A program made the translations under genes and the position numbers. Shown piece by piece: positions 20,149-47,665 of a stretch of DNA of 64,000 nt (position 1 is the first letter of the stretch; every line of letters starts with the position of its first letter). Location of the stretch: the NCBI GenBank assembly GCA_009602735.1, contig WELA01003517.1:643473-707472 (forward strand). Direction: 5' to 3'. This DNA comes from Mesotaenium endlicherianum (Eukaryota). The notes beneath the pieces are model-generated. The model searched no databases and was not told the origin of the DNA. It saw only the letters and a list, made by a program, of their open reading frames with translations.

Positions 20149-20814
20149 CATCCGCGCACCTCTGCAAAACAAGAAAGTAAAAAGTCACGTCGCGAGAAGG
20201 TTAGGGGGGAGGACGACGTCTTTGGGGGCGCCTTCTTCAATTCTCTTAGTGTTGGAGATTTACGGCAGGTTAGATTTTTTACAAGTAACTGACGCCAGTG
20301 CACATGAAAATTACACCTATCTAGGCGAATATATACCTTTCCGGAACTACTCAGCATTTTATTTTATATGCAACGTCCTTCCTCCCCATCACTTATTTTC
20401 TGCCTCTGCCTTGCAGGTTTTTGCGGGCATGGATGGGATTGATTTGCCTATCACACGAGCCCATATTATTCAATGTCAACAAGAGGAGTGGCCGTCTGCC
20501 TTGCAAGGCCTGTTCGACTCCTGTGAAATCTACATTTCATGTCCTCTTCACTCTGTGTAAGATAAAAACAACATTCAGACTGCTGTACATCCTTGTGCTG
20601 TAGGGTTCAGGTTTTAGTTTTTCAGGGCTTTCTCCAGGTCCTGGGTCTGCTGGTTGTCTCTTTATCTCTTGCTCGCTTGCTTGGCTGGTCTAGTGGTCTC
20701 CTCCTCTCTCTCCTCTCTCTCTTTGTTGCTCGCGTTGTTGGCTGGTGTTGAGGTCTGCTCGTATGCTGGTTCTTCTCTCTTTCTCGCTTGCGTGGCTGGT
20801 CTGTTGGTCTGCCG

Positions 20815-20882
<68 letters not shown>

Positions 20883-23335
20883 NNNNNNNNNNNNNNNNNN
20901 NNNNNNNNNNNNNNNNNNNNNNNNNNNNNNNNNNNNNNNNNNNNNNNNNNNNNNNNNNNNNNNNNNNNNNNNNNNNNNNNNNNNNNNNNNNNNNNNNNNN
21001 NNNNNNNNNNNNNNNNNNNNNNNNNNNNNNNNNNNNNNNNNNNNNNNNNNNNNNNNNNNNNNNNNNNNNNNNNNNNNNNNNNNNNNNNNNNNNNNNNNNN
21101 NNCTTGCTTGCTTGCTTGTTTACCCGCTGGTCTGCTGGTGTGGTGGTTCTCTCTCCTCGCCCCCCCCTCTCTCTCTTCCCCCCTATCTCTCTTGCTGGCT
21201 TTCTTCGCTGGTGTTGGAGTCTTGGTGGTGTGCTGGTTCTTTCCCTCCTCTCCTCTCTCTCTCTCCACTCTCCCTCTCTCCCCCCTCTCTCTTGCTTTCT
21301 GTCTTGGTTGGTCTTTTGGTCTGCTGGTCCGCTGGTCCTCTCTCTCCTCTCTCCTCTCTCCTCTCTCTCTCCCCTTCTTCTCTCTCTCCCCCTCTCTCTT
21401 GCTTTCTTGACTGGTTTTCGGGTCCGGTGAGCTGCTGGTTCTCTCTCTCCTCTCTTCTCTCTCTCTCTTTCATGTTCGCTTGCTTGGGTGCTCTCTGTCC
21501 ATCACTCCTGCTCGCTTTTTTCGGCTGGTTTTGAGGTCTGCTCAGCTGCTGGTTCTGTCTCTCTTGCTTTTTGCTTGGCCGGTCCTCTGCTCTGCTGGTT
21601 GTCCCACTTCCCTCCTCTCTCCCCCCCCCTCCTGTCTCTCTCTTTCTCTTTCTCTCTATGTCTCTCTTTCTCCCTTGTTTGCTTGCTTGGTTACTCTTCT
21701 GGTCTGCTGGTGTGCTCGTTCTCTCTCCTCGCCTCCCCCTCTCTCTCTCCCCCCTCCTCTCTCTTGCTTGCTTTCTTGGCTGGTTTTGCAGGTTAGCTGG
21801 TCTGCTGGTTCTCTCTCTTCTCTCCTTTGTCTCTCGCCTCTCTCCCTCTCTCTCCCTTTCTCTTTCTCTTGCTTGCTTTCTTGGTTGGCTTTTAGGTCTA
21901 CTGGTCGGCTGGCCTCTCTCTTCTCTCTCTCTCCTATCTCTCTCTCTCCCACTCTCTGTCTTGCTTGCTCTCTTGGCTGTTTTCTTTAGGTCTTGTGGGT
22001 TGCTGGTTCTCTCTTGCCTCTCTTCTCTCTCTTTGTGATGTTCGCTTGCTTGTATGCTCTTTCTCCCTCATGCTTGCTCGCTTTGTCGACTGGTTTTGAC
22101 ATCTGCTGGTTCTGTTTCTCTTGCCTCATTGCTTGGCTGATCTGCTAGTTGTCCCTCTCCCCCGCGCTCTCTCCCCCCCCCTCTCTCTCTCTTTCTCTTT
22201 CTCTCTCTCCCTTGCTTGCTTGCTTGTCTACTCTGCTGCTTTGTTGGTCATCTCTCTCCTCTCTTCTCTCTCTCCTCTCTCTCTCCTCTCTGCCCCTCTC
22301 CCCCTCTCTTGTTTGCTCGCTTTCTTGGCTGGTTTTCAGGTCCTGTTGGCTACTGGTTCTCTCTCTCTTCTCTCCTCTCTCTCTATTGCATGCTTGCTTA
22401 GTTGCTTGTTGGTCCTCTTCTGTCCTTTCTCTCTCTCCTCTCTCTCTCTCTTACGCATTCGTTGTGCCGCTGCTGCTATGGTTCTGTTGAGCTATGCTCT
22501 CTGCTTGCTACTCTGCTTTGCTGCTGCAGTATTGCTGTGGTATTTTCCTTCTGCTGTGCTGTTGTGCTGCGAGGGGGTGCTGCTGTTCTGCCGTGCTGCT
22601 AGGCTTCTTTGCACCTGCTGCTGCTAGGGGATGCTGGTGTTCTGCTGTGCGCCTAGGTTGCTTTGCACCTGCTGCTGCTGTGTTTGTGCTGCTGTCCTGC
22701 TCTTCTTTGCTGTGCTGTGTTGTGCTGCTGTGTACTGTGCTACTCTTGCTTCTTTTGCTTTGATGCTTGATTATGCAGAACCTGTGCACCCACTTCACAT
22801 GCAGCAACCCCCACTCCCAAGCTGTTGCTGCCATGACGCTGCGGCGATTGTCACATGAAGTGGTTATGTACGGAGGGTGCTTGGCAATGGACCCATCACC
22901 AAGTGTGACGCATGTGGTCGTGTACTCCTTGCCAGACCAGCCTGTCTTATTTGACAACATTTTGACGTGGTACGTCACGACACACTCTGAGACCGTCCCT
23001 TTTGCATGTGTTTCATAGTTCTAATATCAGCATGCATCTGCATTGCTCTGCTCTGCTTTGCTTTGCTTTGGTGTACTCTTCAGTATACGGGACTTTGGGC
23101 TCTATATGGCTTGCTGACTTTTGCACAATTTTGTAATATTTGCCCTCCCATGGCATGAATATTTGTCTTATGTGTTTATGTCCTTTGGGAGGATAATGTG
23201 GGCAGTCTTGGAGAGAGTGCGCGCTCTATGCTCTTATCCCCAGGTACCAGTTTGTTGTCACACTTGTGGCTGGAGGATAGCTATAAGGCCGGCAAGCAAG
23301 TTCCATTAGCAGAATATGACCTTAGGTCTAACTGA
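20149..23335 (+). CDS. DNA ligase IV C-terminal fragment (XRCC4-interacting region + BRCT2) carried inside the hAT element; start codon unresolved
   Basis: Exons 20149-20268, 20417-20556, 22805-22969 and 23206-23335 (TGA) have canonical AG/GT borders and matching phases, giving 184 aa without stops: ..EKVRGEDDVFGGAFFNSLSVGDLRQ|VFAGMD..GLFDSCEIYI..|NPHSQAVAAMTLRRLSHEVVMYGG..VTHVVVY..|..LLSHLWLEDSYKAGKQVPLAEYDLR. This is collinear with the LIG4 XIR (D.YGDSY....D...LK.VF) and BRCT2 (GG, THVV, W..DS) as recalled. Confidence 0.75.
20640..22760 (+). repeat. Compound low-complexity repeat (CTGCTGGT / (CT)n / CTTGCTTG units) filling intron 2 of the LIG4-like gene
   Basis: Directly visible. The same family occurs in inverted orientation at 23650-24380, 25600-26524 and 36998-37840, inside transposase introns. 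Confidence 0.85.
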
Positions 23336-24261
23336 TTTACAATGTAGCGCTCATGTCATTCATTGTTTGTTAATGGCACTATTGAGACTTATTTGTCGTA
23401 TCATAATTTCACGTGTTGAGTGAAGTTGTCAATTTAATCACAGCTTCTCTTCATCTCTACACTAGCTTCTATCCTATGCTATACTAATATGTGTTTGCTG
23501 TATTCTCTTTAGCTTAGCCTCTTATATGAGTATGCATTAATTCTATTATCTCATACTTAATAATATTAGACACCCAAATTCGATGCAATGCTCACAAGTA
23601 CTGCACAATATGAAGATGAGTAGGTATGTAAGAGATGCTATGCACTAGCAAGAGAGAGAGAGGAGAGAGAACGAGTGGACCACCCAAGCAAGGCTGAGCG
23701 AGAGAGGAGAGAGCAACCCTCCAAATCAGCAAAGAAGGCAGGCAAGCAAGAGAGAGAGAGAGGGGAGAGACGCGAGAGAACCAGCAGGCTGGGCAGGCAA
23801 GCAAGCAAGGGAGAGAGAGAGAGAGAGGAGAGAGAGACGGCATACCAGCCGACCACCAGATTAGCCAAGCAAGCAAGCAAGAGACACATAGAGGGAGAGA
23901 GGAGAGAGGAGGGAGGGGAGAGAGAGAGACAAGAGAGAGAGAGAGAGAAAGAGTGAGAGAGAGAGGAGAGGAAACCAGCAAACTAGCCAAAAAAGAAAGC
24001 AAGAGGGAGATAGAAAGAGAGAGTGAGAGACAGAGAGGAGAGAGAGACGGCAGACCGGCAGACCAGCAACTCATCCAAGCAAGCAAGCAAGAGACATAGA
24101 GGGAGAGAGGAGAGAGAGAGAGGAGAGAGGAAAGAGAGAAATAGAGAGGAGGTGTGAGAGAGGAGAGAAAACCAGCAGACCAGCCAAGCAAGCAAGCAAG
24201 AGGGAGATAGAGAGGAGAGAGGCAACAGACCTGCAGACTTGCATATCAGCCAAGCAAGCAA

Positions 24262-24337
<76 letters not shown>

Positions 24338-24338
24338 N

Positions 24339-24381
<43 letters not shown>

Positions 24382-26660
24382 AGACAAATTATGGAGAATT
24401 TATAAAAAAATGTCGGAATTATGTACATGGAATTATGGAATATGGTATTATTACATCACATGGTAATGAAAGTAATACTCAACTAATGACTATGAAAGCC
24501 TATACACTGTCGATGTATGATGCAAAGTTAATCTAAATGACCTCACATATGCGAGCACTTTAAACTGTGAAGTACGACGCTATTACTCACATGGATCATC
24601 ATCAGAGAAGTATTTTGGCTCCTCTACTAGGGGCCATGACTCACTATCTAGTGCATCCTCTTCAGGATTCTCAAAAGCACCCTACTCTGCTTGAATGTAA
24701 GCCTCAATGAACCTCCCAGGCACAGGGGCTTTACCAGCACGCCTCTTGCCTTCCAATAGGTGAATGTTAGAATGGACCTTAACCAACTTCTCAGCTCTAA
24801 TCTGTGTTAGACGGTTCCGCTTCTTGTTATGCACAAAGTCATACTCAGACCAGATACGCTCATAAGAGCTCGCTGACGTACACAGGCCTAAGACCTTAAT
24901 AGCAAGCTCTTGCAGCTCAGGATTGCTAGAACCATACTCATGCCACCATGCAGGAGCACTAAATTCTGTGCATTCATCATCAGCATCTGGAGCAGCAAAG
25001 CTGCCTGATTTAGCCTGATACATCCTCACCTGCTCCGTTATGACCTTTCTGTCAGCCTTATGAGGCACCAAACGCTCCAAAATCAAATTCCACCCAGCCT
25101 TAACCTCTTTCACACTATGCTGGGCATGGTCCTGGTATTGAGGGTGCAAAACATAGCCAGCTGCGTGCATAGGTGAGTGAAAAAAGTCCCACCTATCTTG
25201 GACAAGGTCCACAAAGAAGTTCCTCTCCGCAGCGGTAAAGCCAGGAAGCTTCTTGATGAACTTCACGTAGTCACACAACTTACACCACACCTGCCCAATG
25301 ACAGGCTGGACCCCGTCACATAGTCGAAACAGCTGCACGATTGGCTCCGCCAACTTGATGATCTTCTCCACTTGCTTCCAGAAGACGGGGTCGTTGATGC
25401 ATTGAGTACGCTCGTTGCACTTCGCATACTCATCAAGAGAGAGCTTGTCCTTCCACTGGGTCCAAGCATCTCTGACCACCATGCACTTCAAGCCCTCTTT
25501 CACCTGCAGTATCATGAGGAACACAGATGTAGCCCACTATTAGTGGCAACAAGGAGAAGCACTACAACACAATTGGGACAAAATATAGCAATAGAGAGTG
25601 AGAGACTGAGGAGAGAGAGAGGGAGAGAGGAGAGAGAGGAAAGAGCGAGCCAGCAGACCAGCAGACCAGCAGAATAGCAGAACAGCAAACCTGAAAACCG
25701 GCGAACAAAGCAAGCAAGAGTGAGAGAGGGGGAGAGAGATAGAGAAGAGAGAGAGAAAGGAGAGGAGAGAGAGGCAGCAGACCAGCAGACCTGCAAACCA
25801 GCCAAGAAAGCAAGCAAAGGAGAAAGAGGGGGAGAGAGAGAGAGGAGAGAAAAGAGAGAACCAATAGACCAGCAGACCGGCCAAGCAAGCGAGCAAGAGA
25901 GAAGAACCAGCATACCAGCAGACCTTAAAACCAGCCGACAACTTGGGCAAGAGAGAGAGAGGAGAAAGAGGAGAGAGAGGAGAGAGAGGACCAGCAGACC
26001 ACCAGACTTCGAAAGTAGCCAAGAAATTGAGCAAGAGGGAGAAAGAAAGCCAGAGAATGGAGAGGAGAGACTCCGAAAGAGGGAAAAAAGAGGAGATAGA
26101 CAATGAGCAGACCTGCAGACCAGACCAGAAAGCGAGCAAGGGAGAGAGGAGAGAGAGAGGAGAGAGGAGAGAGGAGAACCAACAGACTAAACAAGCAAGC
26201 AAGCAAGGAAGAGGGAGAGAGGGAGGGAGAGAGAGAAGAGAGGAGAGAGAGAACCAGCAGATCTACAGAGCCGCCAAGCAGGCGAGCAAGGGAGAGGAGA
26301 GAGAAAGGAGAGGAGAACCAGCAGAGCAGCCAAGCAAGCAAGCGACAGAGAGAGAGAGAGGGGAGAGGAGAGAAGTCTAGCATACTTCCTGACCAACCAA
26401 GCAAGCGAGCAAGAAAGAGGAGAGAGAAAGGACAGAACCAACAGAGCAGCCAAGCAAGCAAGAGAGGAGAGAGGAAGGAGAGACCCAACAGAGCGGCCAA
26501 GCAAGCAAGCGACAGGGAGAGAGGTGTCGTGCGTTACGAGGTTGAGTGCGCACCATAGGCATAAGCAACACATCATAGGCAAGCAGGCTTTGCTGCAATG
26601 GAGTCTATAATACATGTGGCGTTATAGCCAAAAAGGGAGTCAAGTCGAAAATGTTTCAAT

Positions 26661-27661
26661 TAAGAAATGTGTACTCTCCAGAGTGAGCACCTCAAGACTG
26701 TACTCTGGTAGGAAAACAACTAATGAAGTATGGCCCAAAAGATCACTGGAAGCACATCTTGATCTTCAGAGTAGTCCTATGGCAAGGGCGTAAGCTGTGA
26801 CTTTGCTCACCACTTGTGAAGTTCTTCGAGTGACTGGAAGCCTGGAGGGCTTGCTCTTCACAAGAGAGTAACTAAGTGGTCCTGAAAACACAAGAGATAA
26901 AAGTGTAAGCTTTACTAATAATCTCTGTTACTTACACCTGGCATAATGAACTTCTAAAAGATGTCTCTTCTAGGGACATCTCTAGTACTTATACTCCTGG
27001 AATTCCGGCGGGGTATGCGGCGGATCCAGTGTATGTAGTCACTCTAGGAGGCTCTCCTATGTTCACTAATGTGTACAAGGCATGTACTAGCACTCCTATA
27101 GGCTAAGCATAACTCAAACCAATCAAAGCAAGGTGCGTAGGATATGCTACGTGGTCCTCATTGGCCGAGCATACCTTGGGTAATTCTACCTACATAGCGC
27201 CTCAAATGTAGATCTGGAAATTAAGGAAGCTTCCTCTAGGAGTAGGTGATGCAGTCACCAAGTTATAGCCTCAATGATGCACATATACTATGGAAATGCA
27301 AAGCTTATGTAGGCTAAGGGGCTCGCGGATTTGTGCGCACAAAGCTTGGGGTCACGAAGAGCCAACAATGTCACCTTTGGGGACATTGAGTCACAAATTG
27401 GGCTTTGGGGAAGTTTCGCTAGGGATCGGTAGGTGACGCGGACTAGATCGCACCTATCTCGCTCGATACTTGACCAAATGACGCGAAATTGGTGTCATTC
27501 GGAAGATGCTTCGACGCGCTACACGTTGGTGACTTGGAAATCTAGAAAAGGTCAACATACGGATGCGTAAAGTCAATGCAAAGTCGGCCTTCCTAGGTTG
27601 ATGTTCCGCACATGTGGAGCTTGGTTTTTATACGACAACCTCGACTCAATAAATCATGACA
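26661..27661 (-). repeat. Split direct repeat X, internal/3' copy (1001 bp)
   Basis: About 97% identical to 35997-36997. Confidence 0.95.
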
Positions 27662-27663
27662 GC

Positions 27664-27799
27664 TGTCGTGCGTTACGACGTTGAGTGCGCACCATAGGCA
27701 TAAGCAACACATCATAGGCAAGCAAGCTTTGCTGCAATGGAGTCTATAATACATGTGGCGTTATAGCCAAAAAGGGAGTCAAGTCGAAAATGTTTTAAT
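27664..27799 (-). repeat. Split direct repeat Y, internal copy (136 bp); second copy at 26525-26660
   Basis: Near-identical to 26525-26660. It is preceded on - by a polypurine tract (G8 at 27808-27801). Confidence 0.95.
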
Positions 27800-27813
27800 T
27801 CCCCCCCCAGCTC

Positions 27814-29292
27814 TCAGCCTCTAGCTGATGGGCTGTGTACGCTGCCTAAGGCTAGCTCAGTGCAGTCTCCGCAGAACCAGTCTCCAGTTGGCACGCGGGC
27901 AAGCGGCGGGTCGAGGCAGCCGATGTGGAAGCCGAGGTTGCAGCTGTTGCAGAGCAGCATCTTGGCCTCCTGGCCAGTGCTGTGACAGATCTGGCACGCC
28001 CAGTCTTTGGGCGGCCGCGCGTTGCGGGGACGGACCTGCAAGTCAAGTTCAGGAAGGTGGCACGGCCCACAGTTCTTCGTGTGGTCCTTGTGGAGACGGC
28101 CATCTGCGCCTTCCAGCTCCAGGACTCCTGACGCCAAGGCACGCTTGACGCGCAGGATGACCGGCGAGCTGCTGGTGTCGAGGGTGTTTTTCGTCTGGCG
28201 TCGCAGGTACACGAAGTCACCTGCGGAAAACTGCAACACCCGCGGATGATAGGATCCTCCACGAGTCATGGCGTACCTCAGTGTGTCGCGATGCTGTGCG
28301 GTGCTGAGGTTATCCATGGCCATGGGCATCAGGCGCCGAAAGAGCTGAGCACGCTGCCCGATAAAAGCACTCCATGTCTCGGGACTGTCCAAGTCCAAGA
28401 CGTTCTCGGCCACAGTCCTGGCTGCTGCTGGCAGGATGGGCTGTCGGCCGTAGAGAAGGAAGTAGGGAGAGTGCGAGGCCAGGGAGGCCTGCTTACTGAA
28501 CCTGTACCCCATCGCCAGCCAAGGGAGGGCGTCATCCCAGTGGGTACGGTCGTGGGCAAGGCAGTACTTCCGCAACCCTAGCTTGACGGTCTGCACCATG
28601 CGCTTGGCGAGGCCGTCAGCCTGAGGATGATCGCGGGAGGTGGTGCGGTGGTCGATCATAGAGCGCTCCAGAAGCTTCTGAAAGCTGCCCTGGAACTCCT
28701 TGCCCTGGTCGGTCAGCACCTCAGCGCAGCCACCAAAACGGCTAAGGACCTGATTGAGGAAGGCCTGAGCGATCCCCTCACTGGCCTTGCTGGGCAAGGG
28801 CACGAGCTCGATCCACTTGGACATGTGCTCAATCATCACCAAGACATAGAGGTTGCCCTGGCGAGACTTGGGCAGCTCTCCAGCCAAGTCAAGCGACCAC
28901 CTGTAGAACAACCCCTGAATAGGAAGGGGGCTGAGGGCGACGGTGCGCGCTGTGAAGCTCGAGCGCACACGGTCGCAGAGAGTGCAGCTGCTGACGACAG
29001 CGGCGACGACCTTAGTCATGCCGTGCCACCAGTACTCGGCCTGAAGAAGACTGAGGGTGTGCTTGACACCGAAGTGCCCGAGGGACTCGTGCACTTGGCG
29101 CACCAGCTGACTGCGTATGGCAGGCTCAGGGACCACCAGGATGGAGCCGTGTGCCATCACGCGCCGCACGCGCCCCTCTATGAAAATGAAGTCGCGGCTG
29201 TGCCTGAGGATGCGATCGCACTCGCGTGCGCTGACATCGGGTGCCATCTCCTTGGCCGTGACGTACTGCAGCACTAGGGCGTCGTCCCACAC
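27814..29292 (-). CDS. DDE integrase with C-terminal PHD finger (pol segment)
   Basis: HHCC motif (HESLGH..CTLC), core WSLDLAG..VLTDQGKEF..HPQADGL, and C4HC3 PHD finger CQIC..CNSCNLGFHIGC..WFCGDC. Confidence 0.9.
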   Translation of the reverse strand: MWDDALVLQYVTAKEMAPDVSARECDRILRHSRDFIFIEGRVRRVMAHGSILVVPEPAIRSQLVRQVHESLGHFGVKHTLSLLQAEYWWHGMTKVVAAVVSSCTLCDRVRSSFTARTVALSPLPIQGLFYRWSLDLAGELPKSRQGNLYVLVMIEHMSKWIELVPLPSKASEGIAQAFLNQVLSRFGGCAEVLTDQGKEFQGSFQKLLERSMIDHRTTSRDHPQADGLAKRMVQTVKLGLRKYCLAHDRTHWDDALPWLAMGYRFSKQASLASHSPYFLLYGRQPILPAAARTVAENVLDLDSPETWSAFIGQRAQLFRRLMPMAMDNLSTAQHRDTLRYAMTRGGSYHPRVLQFSAGDFVYLRRQTKNTLDTSSSPVILRVKRALASGVLELEGADGRLHKDHTKNCGPCHLPELDLQVRPRNARPPKDWACQICHSTGQEAKMLLCNSCNLGFHIGCLDPPLARVPTGDWFCGDCTELALGSVHSPSARG

Positions 29293-29296
29293 GTCA

Positions 29297-30900
29297 TCAG
29301 GGACTGCGTTGCCAGCTGTCTTGATCCTCTGCCGCTGCCAGGGTCAATCGTCGAGTGGTGACGGTCACCATGTCCAAGCTAGTGAGCCCTGCGGGCCACA
29401 CATCGCCGTCCACGGTGAAGGCCAGGAAGGCCGCCGCGTGCCAGGCCACCGGCTCATCCTCATCGTGGCGGGCCACAGTGAGATCCCTCGAGGAGGGCAG
29501 CGGGTTACGGCTAAGACCGTCAGCCTCCAGGTTGGTCGAGCCTGGACGGTGGTGCACGTCGAAGGTGTACTCCTGCAAGATAAGCGCACACCGTGCGTAC
29601 TTGCCGGTCAAGCGCTCCGACGTCATGAGCCACTTAAGTGGCTGATGGTCGATGACCAGGCGGAAGTGCGTGCCATAGAGATAGTGCCTGAAGTGCACGA
29701 TCGCCCAGACCATTGCCAGGCACTCCCCCTCGTAGGAGCCGTAGTTGCCTTCCGCGCGGTTGTTGCTGCGGCTGGCGTAGGCCACCACATGCTCGAAGCC
29801 GTCATGCTCCTGCACCAGCACAGCGCCCAGCCATGCCTGCGACCAGTCGGTGTGGAGGATGAAGGGCTTTGCGTAGTCAGGACGCCGAAGCACAGGAGCG
29901 CTCACCAGCAGCTCCTTGAGCTTATCGAATGCCGCCTGCTGCTCTGGTCCCCACACGTAGGCAACGCCTTTGCGGAGCAAGTCGTTGAGCGGCTTGGCTA
30001 GCTCGCTGAACCCTGGCACGAAGCGGCGGTAGTAGTTGGCGATGCCGAGGAAGGCCCGCAGCTGCGAGAGATCTGTAGGAGGTGGGATGCCTGTGATGGC
30101 CAAGATCTTTGCCAGCTAGGGTGCCAAGCCGCTGGAGGAGAGCAGGTGGCCAAGGTACTCCACCTCGCGGGTCCTAAAAGTGCACTTGCCTGGATGGCAC
30201 TTGAGCCCAGCGGCCTCCAAGCGGTCCACGACAGCAGTGATGTGCGCCACGTGCTCCTCAAACGTCTGACTGAAGACGAGCACGTCATTGATGTAGCATC
30301 GGGCAAAGGACAGCCCGGCAAGCTCCTTATCCATCACCCTCTGAAAGGTAGCTGGCGCGTTCTTCAACCCAAACGGCATCACCACCCACTCGTAGAGCCG
30401 CTGTGCTCCCCAAAACGCCGTCTTATGCTGGTCCTCCTCGGCGATGGGAATCTGGTTGAAGCCCTGACGCAGATCCAGCACTGAGAACCAAGTGCACGTG
30501 CCAATGTCGTCAAAGATCTTGTCAGGCGTCGGCATAGGATATCTGTCCTGCTCGGTGACCTCGTTCAGCGTACGATAGTCACCGCACATCCTCTTCTCGG
30601 ACCAGTTGCCCGAGGCATCCTTCTTGGCTGGCATAACCGTGGGTGCGACATAGCGAGAGGAGGACTCCCAAATGAGCCGACTGTCCTCCAGCTTGCCTGT
30701 CTGCGCGCTGATCAAGCCATCCTCAAAGTGGCTGTAGCGATAACGCTTCAGGAAAATGGGCTCCTGCGACGTGAGAGTAATCCGCATGGGGTCCCCCCTG
30801 TAGTGCCTGAGATCGTGCATGCCGCTGGCAAAGCTGGTGCTGCGCCTCCCGTCCAGCAGTGCCGTCAACTGTGCAGCCTGCGCCTTGGTGAGTGTCTCCC
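29297..30900 (-). pseudogene. Reverse transcriptase + RNase H (pol segment), interrupted by TAG at 30116
   Basis: RMCGDYRTLN..DRYPMP..LDLRQGFNQI..MPFGLKNAPATFQR..CYINDVLVF (YxDD altered to YIND); RNase H FILHTDWS..VAYASR..EGECLA..DHQPL. Confidence 0.88.
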
Positions 30901-31369
30901 CCAGCTTCCATGTCGATGGAGCTGGTGGCGTTGCCTGGCCTGCAGCTGGAGTCTCTTGTCTTGCCGCTGGGGTAGACTGTGGTGCTGCAGGTGTCACCTG
31001 CCTTGCAGCGGTTGGCGCTTGGCCTGCCGCGGGTACCTGCCCCGTGGCAGCTGCGGCCAGCTGCCTGGCACCGTCTGCCTGCGAGCGAGGAAAAAGAAAG
31101 GGTGACCGGGACTCTCTGGGTCGCTGTGAGGACTCCTCTCTCCGCCGTCCCCCCCCAAGCGAACCAAAGTCCTCCCTGCGCGGCGGTGGGGAGGGGGGGC
31201 GCGCGCGCGCCGGCGGTGCAGGCCCTGCGCGCTGAGGATGCCACGTCGTGCCGGGCGGGGCCTGATTGTCATCGTCGGTGGAGTCATCGTCCATATCATC
31301 GGCAGGCCGAGGCAGCTCGGGATGCCGGGCTGCGGCGTAGAGAGGCGCCAAGGCCTGCGTCTGCAGCAG

Positions 31370-32310
31370 AATCCACGTGAGGACGTTGGCGTCGATCGCC
31401 TGCCCCAAGAGGCGAATGCGGTTCACCTCAGTGAGACCGTCCACCTGTGTGAGATGCGGCGGGAAGCCCATGGCACGCTCCATCTTCGCAGGGCGCGGCC
31501 TGTCAAACATGCCAGTCTCCAGGTCGATGACCATCCCGCGCTGATCTCCGACAAAGGCGTCGCTGTCGTAGCGGCTGACAAAAGTCGGCAGCGCGCGAGT
31601 GACGTCATGCAGGACCTCACACTGCGCCACGGAGGGATGTGGTAGTGCAGTCACGCGCTGGGCCATACGAGGGGCATCGAGGATGGAGTCAACGGTGCGT
31701 GGGTGACGTGGATGAGAGGCGGCCAACGCCTCGAGAGTACCTGGCATTGCCAGGTTCGTGAAGTAAGCGCGGACGCGGTGCGCAAAGGAACCAATCTGGG
31801 CAGCGTCGATGACGGCCTCGTGGCCGACGTAGCTGCTGCAAAGAGCAAAGTCGGCGCTAACATTGGGTCGGTGATCGTGGCGCGCGGCCACGTTCTCCAG
31901 GACCCACGCGAGTGTGTGCGGCGGCTGGCGATCCTCAACAATGTTGAGGACGCGGAGCAAGGCCAGAAGAGGGCCGTGCGGGGATCGCTGAGCGCCCTGC
32001 CACGCCCGGCTCTGGAGAAGCCCTGGCACTCCCAACCGGCGATGACGAGGTCAATGGGCCCAAGGCGGGTGACATGCTCGACGGTGATGTCGCGGATGTC
32101 CATGGGCCAGTCTGTCTGAGCGCGGCGGAATGCGTGCGCGGGAAGGAGGTCTGGGAACCGCTCGTGGCACAACGCCATCTGCCGACGGGCCACCTGCTGG
32201 GCCTCAGGATTGGGATCGTTGTAGACGTAGCGGTGCACCGGGATGCCGGCCTCTAAGGTCGCGAGCAACCCGGTGGCGATGCCGGCGAAGAGCTCGACGA
32301 GGACGATGCC
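31370..32310 (-). pseudogene. C5 cytosine DNA methyltransferase domain (DNMT3/DRM-like motifs) inside pol; frameshift near 31960
   Basis: Motif I VELFAGIATG, motif IV DLVIAGWECQGFS, motif VI WVLENV, motif VIII HRVRAYFTNL, motif IX MERAMGFP, motif X RIRLLGQAID. The motifs are split between ORFs 31651-32481 and 30116-32035. Confidence 0.88.
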
Positions 32311-32556
32311 CTGTCGGAGACTAGACATGAGCCGTGTGCGTGCGGCGGCCGTAAATGGGTTGCGACTGGGCGGCCTGCTGTCGGTGCGGGCCACCTTGGA
32401 AGGAGGTGACCCGGAGGGACCGTCGCCAGCGATGTGGCTGCGAGGGACACTGGCGCGCGGAGCTGTAGGGGCCAATATCACAAAATCTGCCTCGGAAGAA
32501 AACTGAGCGTCGTCGCCAGCTGAGAGGGGCCGGAAGGGCAGAGTGCGGCGTCGGTC

Positions 32557-33609
32557 TCAGGTCTCGCCAGTTTGATGCGAGGCGGCGTGAGGGGGCGGCA
32601 GAGAGTCCATACTGTACTGAATGGCCACGCCAACAGGCACGTCGTGGCGAACGCGGACGTCGGTCCTCGCGGACGGCTCGCCGCGAGAGGCCGAGACCCC
32701 CTGATGAGCCGTAGGCGCTGCGGCCGCACCGCGAGCAAGGGCGGCGGCAGCGATGGCTGTGCTGGCCATGGCGAGGGCCTCAGTGGCATCGGCCGCCATC
32801 TGCCTCATCATCGCGCTGTGGGCAGTGCAGATGCGGATCTGCTCCCTGGCCTGGGCTGCCAGGACATCCGCCTGCTGCTGCGGCGTGAGGTGGAGCTCGG
32901 CACTAGGTAGGTCCGGCTCCTCGTCCTGTGGCTTGAGCAGGTCCACCCCCACAGAGATCTCCTTGTCCTTGGGCCCGTCCTTATCGGTCTTGACCACTGG
33001 CCGGCCATCGCCCAGCCCCATGAAGCCATAAAGAGCGAACACTGCAGGGCGGCAATCGACATTATCAAGGGGCAAGGATGCGGTGCGCGTCCCCCCTGTC
33101 CTCCAGTCGGGACGATAGAAGACGCGCTCCGCCCAGTTGTCGGCCGCGGCGCCAATGGGAAAGAGCACGTCTTGCCCTAGGAGCACATCAAAGGACTTGG
33201 AAGGAGTGACGAGTGCGTGCCGATGGATGGTTGTCTCGTCTGCCGTGCCTGGGCGCAGAGTGAACAGTAGCGCCAACCTCGTACGGCTGGCGACGGTCTC
33301 GGACGTGCCGGCGGCGGTGTTAAAGCGCGTCGGAGAGTCCTCCAAGTCGACGGAAGAGAGTCCCAGCTGACGGAAGTAGCGGAGGCTTATGAGAACCGGC
33401 TGCGCGCCTGTGTCGAACATGATGTGCTGCGGCGCCTGGGTGTTGACGAGCACGATCCCCTGCGAATTATCCAAAAACGCGGCATTAGGAGTGCTGATCA
33501 TCCTGCGCTCATGCGCAGAGCGCGCGGGCGTGGATCGCACCGCGGTGGCGGCATCGGCCGTCGACCTCCTGGCGGCGGTGCGCAGCGTGTCTCTGCGCGA
33601 CTGGAGCAT
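32557..33609 (-). CDS. Retropepsin-like aspartic protease segment
   Basis: IMFDTGAQPVLI..FDVLLGQD motifs; flanked by in-frame stops at 33613 and 32557. Confidence 0.75.
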   Translation of the reverse strand: MLQSRRDTLRTAARRSTADAATAVRSTPARSAHERRMISTPNAAFLDNSQGIVLVNTQAPQHIMFDTGAQPVLISLRYFRQLGLSSVDLEDSPTRFNTAAGTSETVASRTRLALLFTLRPGTADETTIHRHALVTPSKSFDVLLGQDVLFPIGAAADNWAERVFYRPDWRTGGTRTASLPLDNVDCRPAVFALYGFMGLGDGRPVVKTDKDGPKDKEISVGVDLLKPQDEEPDLPSAELHLTPQQQADVLAAQAREQIRICTAHSAMMRQMAADATEALAMASTAIAAAALARGAAAAPTAHQGVSASRGEPSARTDVRVRHDVPVGVAIQYSMDSLPPPHAASHQTGET

Positions 33610-33612
33610 CAG

Positions 33613-35948
33613 CTAAGCGGCCTGCCTCGTTGCCTCCATGGCGACGCCGAGCTCTACGAAGGAGACCACCGGCATGCGGTGCAGTGCTAGAGAGATGACC
33701 TCGGCGCTGAGCTGCACCGTCGTCATAGGCAAAGCGAGCGCATGTGGCGTCGGCTCTGCTGAGGTCGTGGAGGGCTCTAGGATGCGGAAGGAACGGGGCA
33801 ACCGCGGTGCCTCCTCCGTCCGGCGTCCCTGGTCTGGCCTGGCGCGCTTATGCGGGACAACGGGCCGACTGGCCGGTGCTACGAGCGTGTGCTCGCGGCT
33901 TGCGCGCCCGACTGCGGAGCGGTTGCCGAGTGGCTGCGCGCATGCGCAGCAGGCCAGAATGGCCGCTGCTGGCGCAGCCGGCAAACCTGCCGCGCATTCT
34001 GCCGCGGGGCCTGTTGCAGCGCCGTGCGCGCAGCTTGCCGCGAGGCCTGCCGCGGGGCCCGTTGCGAGATCTGCCGCCGCGCCTGCCGCGCAGCCGGTGG
34101 CGGGAACTNNNNNNNNNNNNNNNNNNNNNNNNNNNNCAAGGACGGAGAGGGAGGCTGCGGCCGGACCAGCTGTAGCCGTGCACGCCGCCAGGTGCCCCCG
34201 TCCCTGCCTGCCAACTGTCGCTACGCGGGCTGACGGGAGGCCTGCTGGTGCCAGCAGGGAAGCGCAAGCCAGGGGCTCTATCGGGGCCTCGGCTGGCGTG
34301 CGGGCTGGCCCGCGTGCGCGCGAGCTTGCGCCGGGAGATGGCGCAACCGCGCAGTCGTGCAGCCTGCCATTCGGCAGCCTGTTGGGACTCCAGCTGTCGC
34401 TACTGACAGCTGTCAGGGCGGTGCGCACAGGGCTAGAAAAGCTGCTTGTGCGGGCGCCTGCAGCTCTGGCAGCGGGCGCTACGTCGTAATGCGGACGTGC
34501 GCGGGGCTGCGGCGCTGTCGCTGAGCTTGATGTGTGCGCTGAAGCTGTGCGTGCGCCAGCTGTCAGTGCCGTGGCATAGGACGGTGGAGCGGACGCGAGG
34601 AGTGCTCCGCACACGTCATAGTTATTGACGTCGACGAGGCCACGGAGTCTAGCGATTTCCGCGTTGGCCTCCACGAGGGCGTCGCTGACGTCGTCGAAGC
34701 TGCAGTAGTCGGCTCCAGGCATCAATGCGGCGTCCGTCGTGGCCGTAGCTGCTGTCATCGCGGGGCGGCCACCCATACGAGGGTTGCGTGCGCCTCGCTG
34801 TCCTGCTGAAGGCGTAGGGCCGTCGCGAGCGCGTCCGTTCTCGACGTCGCGCTTCTTCTGCAGACAGACGATCTGCAGGTGGCCGGCCTTGTCACAATAG
34901 GTGCAGTCGCCGGGCTTGCCATTCTGCGCGAGAGTGCAGTTCTGGCGTGAGTGGCCCGTCTTCCCGCAGGACCAGCAGGGATCGCTCGTATTGGCAGCCA
35001 TGGCAATGCGGCCACGCGTAGCTCCGCGCTGCTGCGTCTGCTGGGGCAGCTGAGAGCGCCGAGGCTGCTGCTGCTGCGACTGGGGCTGGCGGGCAGGCGT
35101 AGTGCGCGTCGTAGAAGACGGCAGCACTGAGGCCTCCTGGCGCACGCCCGTGGATGCTAAGCCCACACGATTGCTAATGTTGCTCCGTGCGGCGGCCAAG
35201 CTTTGCTTCTCAACGGAGAGGTAGGCCTGCTTCAGAGAATACTCTGAACCGTGGCGGTCGATGAGGGGGACTACGGCCCTCTCCCTCAGACGCGGCTCAA
35301 CGGCGCGCAAGAAAATCTCCGCGGCCTCCCGGTCAGTGACAGTGCCGGCATCGCGGCGGAGGTGCACCAAGCGGCGGTACATCATGCGGATAGTCTGGTT
35401 CTTGCGTCGGAAGAAATGGTGCAGCTCGTACACCTTCTCTTCAGTTGCAGCCTGGAATTGTGTCTTCAGGATGTTCCAGAAGGCTTGCACTGGATCAGCT
35501 AGCAGGGTTGCACTGGTGGGTCACCCACAAGCTCAGTGCGGGTTCGGAGCTCGGCCTCTTTCTCACGGAAGGTGTCGCGGGCCTTGTGCGAGAGGTAGCG
35601 CATAAGCGTGTCGAAGACGTCGCGCTTAGTCAGCGTGGGTGTCTTGAGCTTTGCGGCCGCGAAGTCAGCCTGAAACTCCGAGATGGTATCTTCCAGATCA
35701 CAGGTGCCTGGCCTACCGCTGAAGCGGTAGGCAGACCTGTCAGTCTTGACCTCGTGGTCACCTGCCATGGGATACCAGAAATCGTAGTGAGCCCACTGGG
35801 GAGATGGCTCAGAAGCAACTGCCGTGTGCTGGAGAGTAGGTTGCTCTTCTTCGGCGGGTTCAGTGATAGTGCTGAGATCTAAGTCTGAGTCTTCTCCACT
35901 AACCCCTTTGTAGTATGGCTGATAAGAAAACCCACTACGGGTAGGCAT
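33613..35948 (-). pseudogene. Gag with two CCHC zinc knuckles; frameshift near 35500
   Basis: ATG at 35948 lies just downstream of the primer site; knuckles CWSCGKTGHSRQNC and CTYCDKAGHLQIVC. Confidence 0.8.
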
Positions 35949-35984
35949 ACGCTGAAGGTTCTAATTGCTTGCAGGCAAAGAGAG

Positions 35985-35997
35985 ATCTTTTAGAAGT
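35985..35997 (-). promoter_or_regulatory. Putative self-priming primer-binding site
   Basis: ACTTCTAAAAGAT on - abuts repeat X. It is a perfect 13-nt complement of 36298-36286, which starts 31 nt after the TATA-like box. No tRNA-type TGG PBS is present. Confidence 0.7.
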
Positions 35998-36997
35998 AAG
36001 GAATGTGTACTCTCCAGAGTGAGCACCTCAAGACTGTAATCTGGTAGGTAAACCACTAATGAAGTATGGCCCAAAAGATCACTGGAAGCACATCATGATC
36101 TTCAGAATAGTCCTATGGCAAGGGCGTAAGCTGTGACTTTGCTCACCACTTGTGAAGTTCTTCAAGTGACTGGAAGCCTGGAGGGCTTGCTCTTCACAAG
36201 AGAGTAACTAAGTGGTCCTGAAAACACAAGAGATAAAAGTGTAAGCTTTACTGATAATCTCTGTTACTTACACCTGGCATAATGGACTTCTAAAAGATGT
36301 CTCTTCTAGGGACATCTCTAGTACTTATACTCCTGGAAATCCGGCGGGGTATGCGGCGGATCCAGTGTACGCAGTCACTCTAGGAGGCTCTCCTGTGTCC
36401 ACTAATGTGTACAAGGCATGTACTAGCACTCCCATAGGCTAAGCATAACTCAAACCAATCAAAGCAAGGTGCGTAGGATATGCTACGTGGTCCTCATTGG
36501 CCGAGCTTACCTTGGGTGATTCTACCTAGATAGCGCCTCAAAAGTGGATCTGGAAATTAAGGAAGCTTCCTCTAGGAGTAGGTGATGCAGTCACCAAGTT
36601 ATAGCCTCAATGATGCACATATACTATGGAAATGCAAAGCTTATGTAGGCTAAGGGGCTCGCGGATTTGTGCGCACAAAGCTTGGGGTCACGATGAGCCA
36701 ACAATGTCACCTTTGGGGACATTGAGTCACAAATTGGGCTTTGGGGAAGTTCCGCTAGGGACCGGTAGGTGACGCGGACTAGATCGCACCTATCTCGCTC
36801 GATACTTGACCAAATGACGCGAAATTGGTGTCATTCGGAAGATGCTTTGACGCGCTACACGTTGGTAACTTGGAAATCTAGAAAAGGTCAACATACAAAT
36901 GCGTAAAGTCAATGCAAAGTTGGCCTTCCTAGGTTGATGTTCCGCACATGTGGAGCTTGGTTTTTATACAACAACCTCGACTCAATAAATCATGACA
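35997..36997 (-). repeat. Split direct repeat X, 5' terminal copy; contains a TATA-like box (TATAAG on -, 36329-36324)
   Basis: Direct repeat of 26661-27661; starts TGTCATG on the - strand. Confidence 0.95.
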
Positions 36998-39900
36998 GAG
37001 GGGAGAGAGGAGAGAGAGGACCAGCGAACCAGCAGAACAGAAAACAAGCCAAGTAAGAACCATCAGACTGCAGACCTGAAAACAAGCCAGCAAAGCCAGC
37101 AAGAGGGAGAGAGATTGCCAAAGAGAGATAGAAGAGAGAGAGAGAGAAGAAAAGAGAGGAATGAGAGGAGAGAGACAACCAGCAGTCCTGCAGACCAGCC
37201 AAGCAAGCGAGCAAGAGAGGAGGGAGAGAGAGAAGAGAGGAGAACAAACAGAGCATCCAAGCAAGAAAGCGACAAAGAGAGAGAGGAGAGAAGAACGAGA
37301 AGAGAGAGGAGAGAGGAGAGGAGAGAGAGAAAGGAGACAAGAGAACCAGCAAAGCATCAGACCGGCCAAGAAAGCGGGAAAGAGAGAGAGGAGAGATAGG
37401 AGGGAGAACCAACAGACTAGACAAGCGAGCAAGCAAGGGAGTGAGAGAGAGGGAAAGAGAGAGAGGAGAGGAGAGAGGAAGGAGAGGAGAGTGACAACCA
37501 GCAGACTTGCAGACCAGCCGAGCATGCGAGCAAAAGAGAGGAGAGAGAGAAAGGAGAGGACCAAGAGAGCAGCCAACAAGCAAGCAACAGAGAGAGAGGA
37601 GAGAGGAGAGAGAGAACCAGCGGACCGGCAGAATAGAAAACCAGCTAGAGAGTGAGATGGGAGGGAGAGGAGAGGAGAGAGAAAACGAGCAGACCAACAG
37701 ACCAGAAACGAGCCAAGAAGGCAAGCAAGAGAGAGAGGGGGAGAGAGAGTGAGAAGAGAGACAAAGGAGAGGAGAGAGAAGCAGCAGCACAACAGACCAA
37801 CTAACCACCCAAGCTAGCAAGCAAGACAGAGAGAGAGCCAGCAGACACATCACAGCAGCACACCATATCGAGCCAATAGCAAAACACCAGCACCTCAAAC
37901 CAGCAGTTACTGAACTACAGCAGCAACACAAGCAAAAGCACATTAAAGCAATGTGGAGGCCCTTTGCTAAATGTAGTGTGAGTAGCATGCATGAGGCCAG
38001 CACAAGCATCGCTTCATGAGCAGATTTGTTATGAATGCATATTTTATTCAGCCGCTCCAAGAGGATGAAGGAGGTAAGAAATCGCGTCGCGTTGGGTAAT
38101 TTGAGCTTCAACTGGCCTTCTTCATGATAGAGAGATAGAGGCTTGTGGTGGTTTTTGATGAATTTCACAAGATTCCTCGCCCGCTCCACAGTTTGTTGAA
38201 CCCAATCAACCTTCACGATAGCTTCCAACATGAGGTCCAAGCCGTGCGCCGCACACGCACTCCACGTGATGGCAGGGTACTTAGCTTCTATGAGTCTACC
38301 TACCACAGCATGACAGCCTTAGCACACGGAAGAATAAGTAGCATCACAGCAGCTGACACTAGATTGCACAGCTCTGTGACAGCAGCACAAGAGAATTGCA
38401 GCCTCACACCAACACAACAGCATAGAAATAAAGCAAAAAAAGCAACACAGCTGCGCAAAACCAGGCCTCCACACTTGCAATACAACATCACGATATAGTA
38501 AAGTATAAAAACACAAGGACATACCTGCATTCTTGCATGCTCTAGCAAAATTTGTGCATATCATGAGAACATGCTCTGCACCAATCTCTGCTATGACCTC
38601 CTCAAAGCATTTGGCGATGAACTTGCCACTCTTGAACTTGCCGTCACAGTTGACCCCCTTCACCATTTTTTCACCCATGGGAGTCAAAAAAATGAAGTTG
38701 ATGATTGGTCTTTTGGTGATGTTGGTCCTGTATATGAATAAAAAACAAATTATTAGGCACAAAAAAAGAAGGCGAGATAAGGATAAGGTAAATACAACAG
38801 CAACACAGCAGCACAACAACAGCAGCAGCAGATCAGCAAACCAGTCTACCAGCACACAACCCAAGGGCACATAATATATGAGTACAGCAGCAGAGCAAAC
38901 CAGCACAAGCACAAGCGCAAGCATAAGCAAAGCAAGCAACAGGCCAGCAGCAGCAGCAGCAACAACAAAGCAAAGCTACAATGCAGCAGTGGTAGCAGAA
39001 GACTTACCAGCCATCGGAGCATATGACACAGCCTGTGACTTTTAGCTTCTTCATGAATTGGCGAAGCTCGATGTCACAACATGCCATTTCTCGATCCAGA
39101 AGCTTTGTCCTTAGGTGCCACATTTGGGGTCCAGAGTAGTTTGGCCCAGCACGGGATATAGAGTCAAGCATGAGTCCATAGGACGCACAATTGGCAGCAT
39201 TAAAAGATATGCCATTGGCATAAAACCACTTGGCAATTGCCTAATCTGCTAGGTCACGAAAACCTGGTTTCCATACCTCAGGGAGGTCAGTTTGCCTACC
39301 AGAACCTTTAGCAGATCCTCCAGAGGAAGAGGAAGGGCAAAGATTGCCGCTCCTCTTCATTTCTTTCTCAAATGCCAGCTGCTCCATAGTCCGCTCATGA
39401 CGTGAACGCTTTTGCAGAAGCTTCATTTGAGCAAGAGGAACTTTGTAAGATCTAGACCTTTCATCTCATAGCATTGGGCAGCAAAGAAAGCATGAACGTT
39501 GAATGGAACTTGAGGACAGCCTGCGATTCCTTGCCCTTGAACACACCCCAAATGGTACCTAATTCTAAATGCACCTCCCAAGTTGATACGGCCACAATAC
39601 GTACAATTATTTTGGTAGGCACCTGGGGAATCAGGCTTGTCTACCTTATGAACTTGGTCATGCTCTGAGAGTAGAATCAGATAGACCTTGGTTTTGCCCT
39701 TCTCAAATTGATGTCAAGCGAGAAGTGCTGCAGGGAGTAACTAGCTCACATTCCTCCTCGTTGTCAAATTGACTTGAATGAGTGTCGTCTACGTCCTGTT
39801 CAGACATTGCAGGATATGAGAAGAGATAAGTAAGAGTGAGGACCCTCGAATCCATAAAGCAGTATTAGATACAGCGTTCAACGTGAGGTATGAATTTCGG

Positions 39901-41901
39901 CTGAGACTCCTTACCAGATGCATTCATACGCGGCTCGTCAGTTAGCGGATACTACCACAAATGCTGCTGTAACCAACTCCCTTTCCTCTGTGAATGGACA
40001 AGAGACAGATAAGTGTGGTAAAATACGTATTCTATTGGATACGCGAGTAACAAAGTTAGAAGAACACACATTTGGTGCAGCGGGAAGGAAACACGAGTTC
40101 TAACTTTTGGTTCCTTTTCCCGCTAGGTTCATCTTTTTTGAAGTGTTGAAGCCAAACATGGCCGGCTGCTAAGCTACGAAGGCACGACGTTATCAGCACG
40201 GCCGTTAGCTTAACTAGTGCCATGACGATCTTCCGTGAAACACAAAACGTGTGACGCGATGACTGGACTCTGACGGACCGGATCGAAAAACTTTAAAAAG
40301 CCTGCGCAAGGGTGTCTGCCACACACGTTTTAAAAATGGAAAACAATTTTAATGACCAACACCAACGTAGTAATTCGACGAATATTGCCGAATTTAATTA
40401 GTCATCACGTATTGTACGGATAACCTGTACGCCCACACGTGTACGCCGTATACAAATTTTTAAACTAGGGATGGGGAAGATGGAGGAGGGGGAGGAGGGG
40501 TGAAGGAGGAGAGGAGGGGAGGCTGGAGAGGAGAGAAAGAAGCGGGGGAGGAAGAGGAGAGGACTGGAGGAGGAAAAGAGGGGGAGGCAAAGGGAAGGAG
40601 GAGGTGAGAAGGAAGGAGGAGGAGGAGGAGGACGTGGAAGTGAACGAGGAATGGAAAGGGAGGAGGGAGGAGGGGAACGGAGAAGAGAGAAAGGGCGAGA
40701 GGGGTGAGAGGGGAGAGGGGTCTTGGAGGTGGGTGGAGGAGGAGGAGGAGGAGACGGTGGAAGAAGAGAGGGAGGGTGGAGGTGGGAGGAGAAAGAGGGA
40801 GGAGGGAAAGTGGGATGGAGGAGGGGAGGAGAGGCAGGGGGGAGAGGAGGTGTGGAGGAAGGAGGAGGAGGAGGTGGGTTTGGAAAAGTAGAAACGAGGG
40901 GGAAGGAGATGATGGAGAAGGAGAAAGGGGGTGGAGGAGGCAGGGGTGAAGCAAGAGAGGAAGGGGAGGAAGGAAATGGAGGAGGTGAGGAGGGGAAAGG
41001 GGAGGTGGATTTGGATGAGGGTGGCAAAGAGGGGAGGAAGAAGGAGAAGAGGTTGAGGAGAGGGGGGGGATGAAATGAATCGACTTACCAAATAGGCGAT
41101 TAACAATTAATAAAGATCTTTATATCAGCAAGTAATCTTTATGGTATTTCCCGTTAACTGGTTAAACGGCAAAGGACAATACACTAGCAATGAATAATAC
41201 TCGTATGTCAAATGCGAGTAAACTAGCATCAGTAATGCAATTTAGTAAACTCATACATAAGCAAGGTTAGAAGACAGTGCGTATCAATGGCTTCTCGCCT
41301 TGGATTCAGATCTCTCTCAGTAAGCTGTGCAAGAGAGTTGGCCTCGTTCCGAATGCCGAACTCGAGAGCAATGCCTAGCATATGTACATGGAATAAGTTT
41401 ACTGTTCAACGGTCAATGCGATGGCACAGCCTACCCGGGAGTTAACCATGTTGGTAGGACCTCGGTTAACCAAATCCACCGCCATCTCCCATCATCCCAA
41501 ATCGCCATCCATCATAGGGATGTCATCTGGCCATTCATCTAGCACACCACACTTGAAAGCATATCGAGGCATTTCGCTGCTACCGAGTACGGAAGTCAGC
41601 TGGCTGTCAAAGAATGTGTCAGCAAGCTGACTTAAGTTGACCTCAGCCTGCTACTTCCGGCCGAGTCATTAAACTGATAATTANGGCCGAGTCATTAAAC
41701 TGATATTAAATATAAAGTCCAGCAGACTGATCATTAACTAGAGTTCAGCAGGCTGAACTTATTTAACTATATTATTTAAACGACTATTATGTCAACCAAT
41801 ATACGGATTCATTACAATCCCTCCAACTTATCATGTTGTCGCCTCGACAACACTAACACTAGTAACAGCGTGCTGTCCCTCTTGTCCCCAGCCTACTGCT
41901 C

Positions 41902-43578: not shown

Positions 43579-43902
43579 CCTGCTCAATCATAAACACAAT
43601 GCAGTTAATGAAGTCATGATATTTTGCCGCTACTGAGTGCCCTTGATGAAGAGGAACGTGATCGGGAGAGTTCCTAGTGTGGAATACCTGGTGTGAGTGA
43701 ATATAAGGGAAAATTGAGTTAGAGAGCAAGTGAGTGTGAGCGCAGGTTGAGTGTGTAATATGGTGATCAGAGAATACCACTCCCTCCAACTTAATTTTAA
43801 AGGTGGGCTGCCTGTCACAACTGTCACTAACTGTCACATCCCCCTCCAACTTATATGGAGACAAGACCTCCTGTCACCTTCCCGTGTCAACTGAAATGAC
43901 TG

Positions 43903-47597: not shown

Positions 47598-47665
47598 AAT
47601 ACCTGCTACGAGGGCAGCTAGTGACGACTCACTATCTCTAGCATCCTCACAGTCAGTAGACTGGA

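Follow-up and report, generated by a model that had tools for sequence, protein, structure and literature searches.

How does a retrotransposon with long terminal repeats (LTRs) enter the genome when the ends found in the chromosome are not those that its reverse transcription is expected to make? The question is raised by a Ty3/Gypsy element on the minus strand (26525-36997) of a 64,000-nucleotide stretch of Mesotaenium endlicherianum DNA (contig WELA01003517.1 of assembly GCA_009602735.1, positions 643,473 to 707,472), hereafter the window. The element holds two sequences twice each, A and B (X and Y in a preliminary description of the stretch), in the order A1-open reading frames (ORFs)-polypurine tract-B1-GC-A2-B2. 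The reading preferred here, with a probability of about 0.7, is that this is a decayed Ty3/Gypsy copy carrying its joined ends as an internal palindrome, which the integrase (IN) likely cuts, while host repair likely does the sealing.

The coordinates, the split-repeat layout and the internal palindrome given in the preliminary description were reproduced exactly when the window was compared with itself. Read along the minus strand, the element opens with A1 (35997-36997), which begins TGTCATG and forms the integrated 5' end, and continues through a primer-binding site immediately after A1 (35985-35996), the coding region, a polypurine tract of eight G (27801-27808), the B1 copy that directly follows this tract (27664-27799), a GC spacer (27662-27663) and the downstream A copy, A2 (26661-27661), to close with the terminal B2 (26525-26660), which finishes CACGACA and forms the integrated 3' end. 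The end of B, the GC and the start of A, together termed att, make a palindrome that is conserved clade-wide and that reads CATGACA-GC-TGTCGTG on the plus strand (27655-27670); the outer ends of the element are the two arms of this palindrome with the GC missing. A2 and A1 differ at 29 of 1001 bp (20 transitions and 9 transversions, no gaps) and B2 and B1 at 3 of 136 bp, so similar a divergence (Fisher p=1.0) being compatible with one age. A2 and B2 meet at 26660/26661 with a 1-nucleotide (nt) overlap, and this would be the sealed joint of two reverse-transcription ends. GAGG stands on both flanks (26521-26524 on the 3' side, 36998-37001 on the 5' side), as the 4-bp target-site duplication (TSD) of the preliminary description; by itself it is weak, the flank being AG-rich and a chance match of two 4-mers having p ~0.03. 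Neither a further copy of A or B nor a tRNA gene was found elsewhere in the 64-kb window.

Two equal LTRs that are bounded by primer site and polypurine tract and double as the integrated ends are not present. The tract precedes B rather than the TG end, and the integrated ends are the start of A and the end of B. The unit B-GC-A is instead the one enclosed by the copying signals, with the polypurine tract on one side and a self-priming site on the other, as had been proposed. The remaining features are those of Ty3/Gypsy: a DDE integrase, TG..CA integrated ends, a TSD within 4-6 bp, the order Gag-protease-reverse transcriptase (RT)-RNase H-integrase and an RT of Ty3 type. Pfam matches on the minus strand follow the Gypsy order, from a fragmented gag-like region with a weak zinc knuckle (33616-35960, interrupted by 28 N at 34109-34136) through an aspartic protease (32560-33612), the N-terminal part of a DNMT3-like C5 cytosine methylase, where the frame is broken (31654-32556), the C-terminal part of the methylase with a linker and the RT (30119-32050), and RNase H (29300-30115), to the integrase with its H2C2 zinc domain and rve core and a C-terminal PHD finger (27817-29343). 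The methylase and the PHD finger extend the domain list of the preliminary description, whose Gypsy domains with a DDE integrase and no recognisable recombinase were confirmed: none of the 44 ORFs of at least 90 amino acids on both strands encodes a tyrosine recombinase, the 28 N being unreadable. Against the PDB all 29 matches of the methylase part are DNMT3A/B/C. Among solved structures Ty3 RT is the best match of the RT (E 5e-40, the next family 3e-27), and foamy-virus IN that of the integrase, Ty3 also being close. The window copy is dead, its reading frame having several breaks and both enzymes having substitutions at catalytic sites, in the YxDD motif of RT and at the catalytic Glu of the integrase; of 88 homologs that could be scored, 85 retain this Glu. 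Named integrase homologs come from Calypogeia, Klebsormidium, Closterium, Riccia, Marchantia and Haematococcus.

The primer site expected after A is there, but it has no tRNA-type start and is complementary to a stretch inside A instead. The 12 letters after A1 match, at 12 of 12 positions, the complement of 36287-36298 (A positions 700-711, minus strand; A2 counterpart 26951-26962), a result reached in 5 of 20000 shuffles. That stretch, close to the 5' end of the transcript, is the predicted self-primer, and a TATA-like box (36324-36329) lies 31 nt above it, as in several relatives at a similar distance. Right after A, complements of 9-16 nt were present at five of eight 5' ends of the L033 type, and others were found in L084 (12 nt), L001 and L006 (16), L012, L016 and L040 (14), L051 (15) and, by eye, L075. 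Such complementarity is the signature of Tf1 self-priming and suggests that priming itself proceeds in this way.

Conservation of att was analyzed in relatives found by an integrase-alignment search, which gave 80 metagenome loci (the best 80 of 219), 3 viral loci and 7 genome-bin loci; the 87 loci with a sufficiently long integrase core formed 29 clusters at 80% identity. Sites were scored as CAYGACA-GC-TGTCAYG with at least 12 of 14 arm letters. The palindrome, which the preliminary description had read as an att junction, occurs once per locus and always downstream of IN, in 35 of the 89 loci with an IN match, in 18 of 29 clusters, and in 14 of the 16 clusters having at least 2 kb of downstream sequence, the two misses being a contig that stops inside the motif (L088) and a 26% outlier (L090). 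As controls, 5.56 Mb of shuffled sequence held 4 matches, 0.47 Mb of upstream sequence held none, and 80 distant RT loci (29-41%) of a viral collection held 2 weak ones; in that collection a single-IN query found no relative and the alignment query 3 distant loci. The 16-bp site is retained among integrases only 37-60% alike to that of the window, and changes in one arm are mirrored in the other in L016, L028, L075 and L012. Spacers GT, AC and AT were also found, the variants that methylated cytosines of CAGCTG would leave on decay. The att-bearing clusters spread across the whole group in a quick IN tree, next to chlorophyte and streptophyte proteins. B varies from ~13 to ~190 nt, a G run lying 13-190 nt before att in most relatives examined. 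In L045 (7070-7100), L050, L051 and L053 only ~13 nt separate the G run from att, and none of the loci of that family showed an integrated 3' end.

Independent insertions that share the layout and have their own 4-bp TSDs, another expectation of the preliminary description, were found among the relatives. Forms were counted in one L033-type family, duplicates being merged by identical flanks; the window's own family stands outside these counts, unitigs and 150-nt reads being too short for B plus both neighbours. Seven of 17 3' ends are of the long form (A-ORFs-B-GC-A-B), ending B-GC-A-B (L013, L027, L033, L034, L044, L058, L073), and ten stop after B (L048 among them degenerate); one contig ending at B and two loci truncated earlier were set aside. 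All seven 5' ends read flank-A-primer site, one additional locus being truncated. The predicted short form A-ORFs-B was recovered with both ends at L046 (TSD TGTT), L071 (ATTA) and L054 (3 of 4 letters), and the long form with both ends at L033 (AAGG) and L044 (TCTC). The second predicted permutation, the mirror form A/B-GC-A-ORFs-B, failed to appear at any of the 7 independent 5' ends (p ~0.024 under equal frequency of mirror and long forms). The TSD is exact at 4 bp in five of the six both-end loci (window, L033, L044, L046, L071) and a 5-bp duplication occurs in none of the six. Long 3' forms occur with unrelated repeat sequences too (L007, L078, L085). At L078 (9458-9571) the 3' end of one family is nested in an element of another att-bearing family.

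The joint between A2 and B2 varies. Among the seven long-form loci it is a 1-nt overlap in five, whereas L034 keeps additional letters of the polypurine side and L044 has a 20-nt insertion patched from nearby A and B sequence, a variation resembling end-joining scars. B1 and B2 of L073 have seven non-majority letters in common, and no fixed difference separates the B1s from the B2s of the various loci, a pattern to be expected of a B2 made anew in each cycle.

Public sequencing runs showed that the family of the window element is multi-copy. At the A start, 3 contigs of X10, 1 of X11, 7 reads of X23 and 19 reads of X24 depart from the reference at exactly that point; where several reads or contigs were available the letters beyond it are mixed (agreement 0.67-0.73), as independent insertions would produce. 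Run X5 has the joint of A with the primer site, one contig across B and the polypurine tract and another across att (short side 26 letters), and contigs of X8 and X11 likewise bridge B and the tract. Since the joints of A with the internal region, of B with the tract and of A-GC-B all recur in contigs of other runs, the order of the element is not a product of the window assembly. In X24, where assignment to the element strand assumes the usual stranded library, sense RNA depth is 13.6, 28.7 and 67.5 over three bins, climbing from ~14 to 68-106 directly below the predicted start; position 26933, where 11 molecules have their end, is ~20-30 nt off the predicted transcript start. Among the loose ends listed (15 of 27) there was no poly(A) tail.

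These observations can be arranged in a cycle. Transcription would start inside A1, and the 5' end of the RNA would prime itself, Tf1-like, on the site after A1. With plus-strand priming at the polypurine tract, standard LTR reverse transcription would give a linear B-GC-A-ORFs-B-GC-A, as predicted from a primer site after A and a tract before B; its ends are unlike the integrated ends, and, given the position of the self-priming site, B2 would not be copied from RNA by this standard route. Both strands of the upstream palindrome would be cut after CA by a multimer of the integrase. The two resulting ends, each with a 5'-GC overhang, would be those that normal 3' processing yields, and their insertion 4 bp apart would remove the GC and duplicate 4 bp. 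The ends, the loss of GC and the 4-bp duplication are seen in the integrated copies, and cutting by the integrase would account for them. During reverse transcription the upstream att would be double-stranded long before the downstream one, so that the integrase could commit to it; this would explain the use of the upstream site only. The free A end would then be joined to the B start, forming the A2/B2 joint, a step to which the variation of the joint points. Joining before the cut, through a 2-LTR circle, is very slightly favoured over joining after it. The short form would result if a 1-LTR circle were cut, or if cuts were made at both att sites.

Several points weigh against this reading. 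Every step of the cycle is read from genomic products, the form counts come from a single family with 17 3' ends and 7 5' ends, the rule for the att motif was set only after matches had been seen, and the relatives are mostly short-read metagenome contigs, liable to collapse or mix repeats. The short forms may equally stem from later B1/B2 recombination or from assembly collapse, and precise A/B joints predominate. At three of the eight L033-type 5' ends the exact primer match in the own A is 6 nt or less. RNA reads from other subfamilies span the A/B joint (7 in X23, 10 and 9 in X24), so B2 can occur in RNA. The RNA reads are mostly 87-95% alike to the window element and hence derive from other copies, and the depth step is not clear in X23, a run too shallow for it.

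Among the other explanations the one that survives best, although unlikely, places the A/B joint within reverse transcription, the enzyme jumping from the strand end to the B start before the integrase cuts att; a variant has B2 copied from an RNA ending in B2, as proposed for split-repeat elements with a tyrosine recombinase. A joint that is exact or overlaps by 1 nt is found in most cases, library records included, the RNA does span A/B, and a jump during synthesis would also yield the asymmetry between long and mirror forms. However, the self-priming site fixes the start of the minus strand at the A end, which leaves any B2 in the RNA uncopied, and the patchwork insertion of L044 looks like host repair. 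Closed free 2-LTR circles cut by the integrase at either att at random would directly give the long form and a variable A/B joint, and retroviral precedents exist, since such circles are made by host end joining (PMC5314604) and can be cut and integrated (PMC4372172). The mirror form should then be as frequent as the long one, and its absence from the seven 5' ends, compared with 7 long forms in 17 3' ends, argues against random cutting; the four Chlamydomonas library records inspected at their 3' end are also of the 3' form, although consensuses hide minor forms. The proposal is quite improbable on these grounds. Integration by a trans-acting tyrosine recombinase in the style of Ngaro, PAT and VIPER, the integrase being a passenger, would suit the order A1-internal-B1-A2-B2 known from split-repeat DIRS elements (PMC8969392), but those elements lack a TSD (PMC8969392), whereas here 4-bp TSDs are made and GC is lost; with no recombinase among the 44 ORFs and the integrase Glu conserved in nearly all scorable homologs, it is very improbable. 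An ordinary element, with A or A plus B as its LTR, altered by a one-off rearrangement, tandem insertion or misassembly, as the preliminary description had itself allowed, is hardly credible, for although A itself spans TG..CA in the L033 and L084 families and the support for the window assembly comes from contigs of other runs, not from genome or long reads, the relatives already refute it, with independent loci of identical layout having their own TSDs and unrelated repeats, the long forms of one family ending at B2 in 7 of 7 cases and never at A2, the joints recurring in those contigs and the chromovirus of the same window being assembled normally, with paired LTRs, a 5-bp TSD and a tRNA-type primer site.

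The layout itself, thought undescribed at the outset, is already on record. The legend of Fig. 4c in PMC5890265 (2018) presents KnitGypsy-Dnmt3 of Klebsormidium nitens with Gypsy domains and a DIRS-type repeat order; like the window element it has a DNMT3-like methylase in Pol. The published text differs from the present account in giving no ends, att, TSD, primer or mechanism, and the main supplement may say more. In a quick tree the IN of the window falls into one clade (15 rows, SH-aLRT 99) with P0010, an IN-PHD protein of K. nitens to which it is 52% identical and which may or may not belong to KnitGypsy-Dnmt3. The Chlamydomonas repeat library v3.4 (supplement of PMC9940879) contains Gypsy-14a_cRei, Gypsy-18_cRei and Gypsy-22_cRei, filed as LTR/Gypsy, each with a polypurine tract, a short B, GACA-GC-TGTC, A and a terminal B again, the ends and att being seen in Gypsy-22_cRei; the C. 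incerta record before Gypsy-2_cInc has the layout and the core site in common with the window element. Their integrase motifs and PHD, read by eye, are of the window type, B is shorter (~45-55 nt), and 9 of 11 core-motif matches in the library follow a G run. Gypsy-7a_cRei, with a left LTR 8 bp short, was tried as a member with a B of 8 nt and dropped, its LTR and primer site being of another type; it is the active family and of the paired-LTR type. The layout is not discussed in the available text of PMC9940879 and its preprint, PMC8557442, PMC8969392 or bioRxiv 2026.05.21.726589, and a literature account of the internal att, self-priming or integration route of these elements was not found, although theses, Repbase and subscription papers may describe them. 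The architecture is real and clade-wide, and its element type and layout, but apparently not its mechanism, are on record.

The primer site of the chromoviruses Tf1, sushi and Tcn1 is the complement of a sequence close to where their transcript starts (PMC4600332, PMC6317226), the likeness to the window element being one of complementarity only; their LTRs are ordinary and paired and they carry a chromodomain, where the window element has a PHD finger and an internal att. Foamy-virus IN cuts a CA-AT-TG junction in vitro on both strands to leave 5'-AT overhangs (PMC1180852), HIV-1 IN cuts its junction after CA as a tetramer (PMC1905944), ~40% of the 2-LTR circle junctions made by host end joining are perfect (PMC5314604), and once a drug is released such circles can serve as a source of integration (PMC4372172). 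These viruses share with the window element a DDE integrase and a CA-NN-TG palindrome, in foamy virus with the same 2-nt spacer, but there the palindrome arises from cDNA ends and serves a side or reserve route. In the clade of the window element it is encoded internally and copied in each cycle, and the predicted cDNA ends are without att. Ngaro, PAT and VIPER share the order A1-internal-B1-A2-B2 and a B1/A2 joint that represents joined termini; they use a tyrosine recombinase and make no TSD, whereas the window element has a DDE integrase, a polypurine tract and a 4-bp TSD. In the bacterial IS3, IS30 and IS21 a DDE enzyme activates abutted ends with a 2-3 bp spacer, although these are DNA transposons without reverse transcription.

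Whether a productive main route can pass through 2-LTR circles or cleavage of an internal junction is a long-standing question of retrovirology, on which the evidence so far comes from in vitro cleavage and drug-release experiments. A natural clade seems to be built around junction cleavage, so that a side reaction of retroviruses would be its main insertion route. A bolder proposal, possible but somewhat short of an even chance, is that an old green-lineage Gypsy clade moved att inside its LTR and propagates only via the 2-LTR circle or an intasome-bridged equivalent. Circles would then be an obligatory productive intermediate and the precision of cDNA ends irrelevant, the encoded palindrome being cut in their place; LTR-type elements would thereby have a third logic of integration, a DDE enzyme converging on the layout of tyrosine-recombinase elements. 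Members exist in Chlamydomonas, where the mechanism can be tested. The clade integrase may accept any circle with a short palindrome, and LTR finders requiring paired TG..CA LTRs will overlook the clade or label it wrongly.

Contigs L051, L052 and L053 hold the same 16.2-kb sequence in circular permutation, with B-GC-A present once; it is either a true 1-LTR circle or a collapsed assembly. In L001, L084, L051-L053, L076 and L080 the primer site follows B-GC-A directly, and some of these contigs have overlapping ends; they fit 1-LTR circles and collapsed assemblies equally and were not counted for circles. L084-L090, retrotransposon integrases on contigs filed in prokaryote genome bins, are likely eukaryotic contamination of those bins.

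The methylase lies between protease and RT in L001, L033 and L084, between RNase H and integrase in L022, L024, L025, L039, L045, L050-L053 and L063, and is undetected in L005, L008, L021, L080 and L086; this variation points to repeated gain or to relocation. A role of the methylase in the choice of att was set aside, since L080 and L086 have att without a detected methylase.

A hAT transposase on the minus strand lies in two pieces that flank the element (24685-25536 and 38180-38975, with dimerisation domain and DUF659). The surroundings of the element are AG-rich, with AG-rich repeats between the two pieces and similar AG and CT blocks at ~23600-24400 and 20600-22500. The chromovirus used as assembly control (51141-57815, minus strand) is a chromodomain Gypsy with LTRs ~97% alike, TG..CA ends and a long open pol ORF of 1230 amino acids. 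A second chromodomain Gypsy (41071-49898, minus strand; LTRs ~91% alike) has an additional ORF of 447 amino acids (41905-43245) without a Pfam match. At 62479-63999, also on the minus strand, a 507-amino-acid open frame with DUF2043 is cut by the window end.

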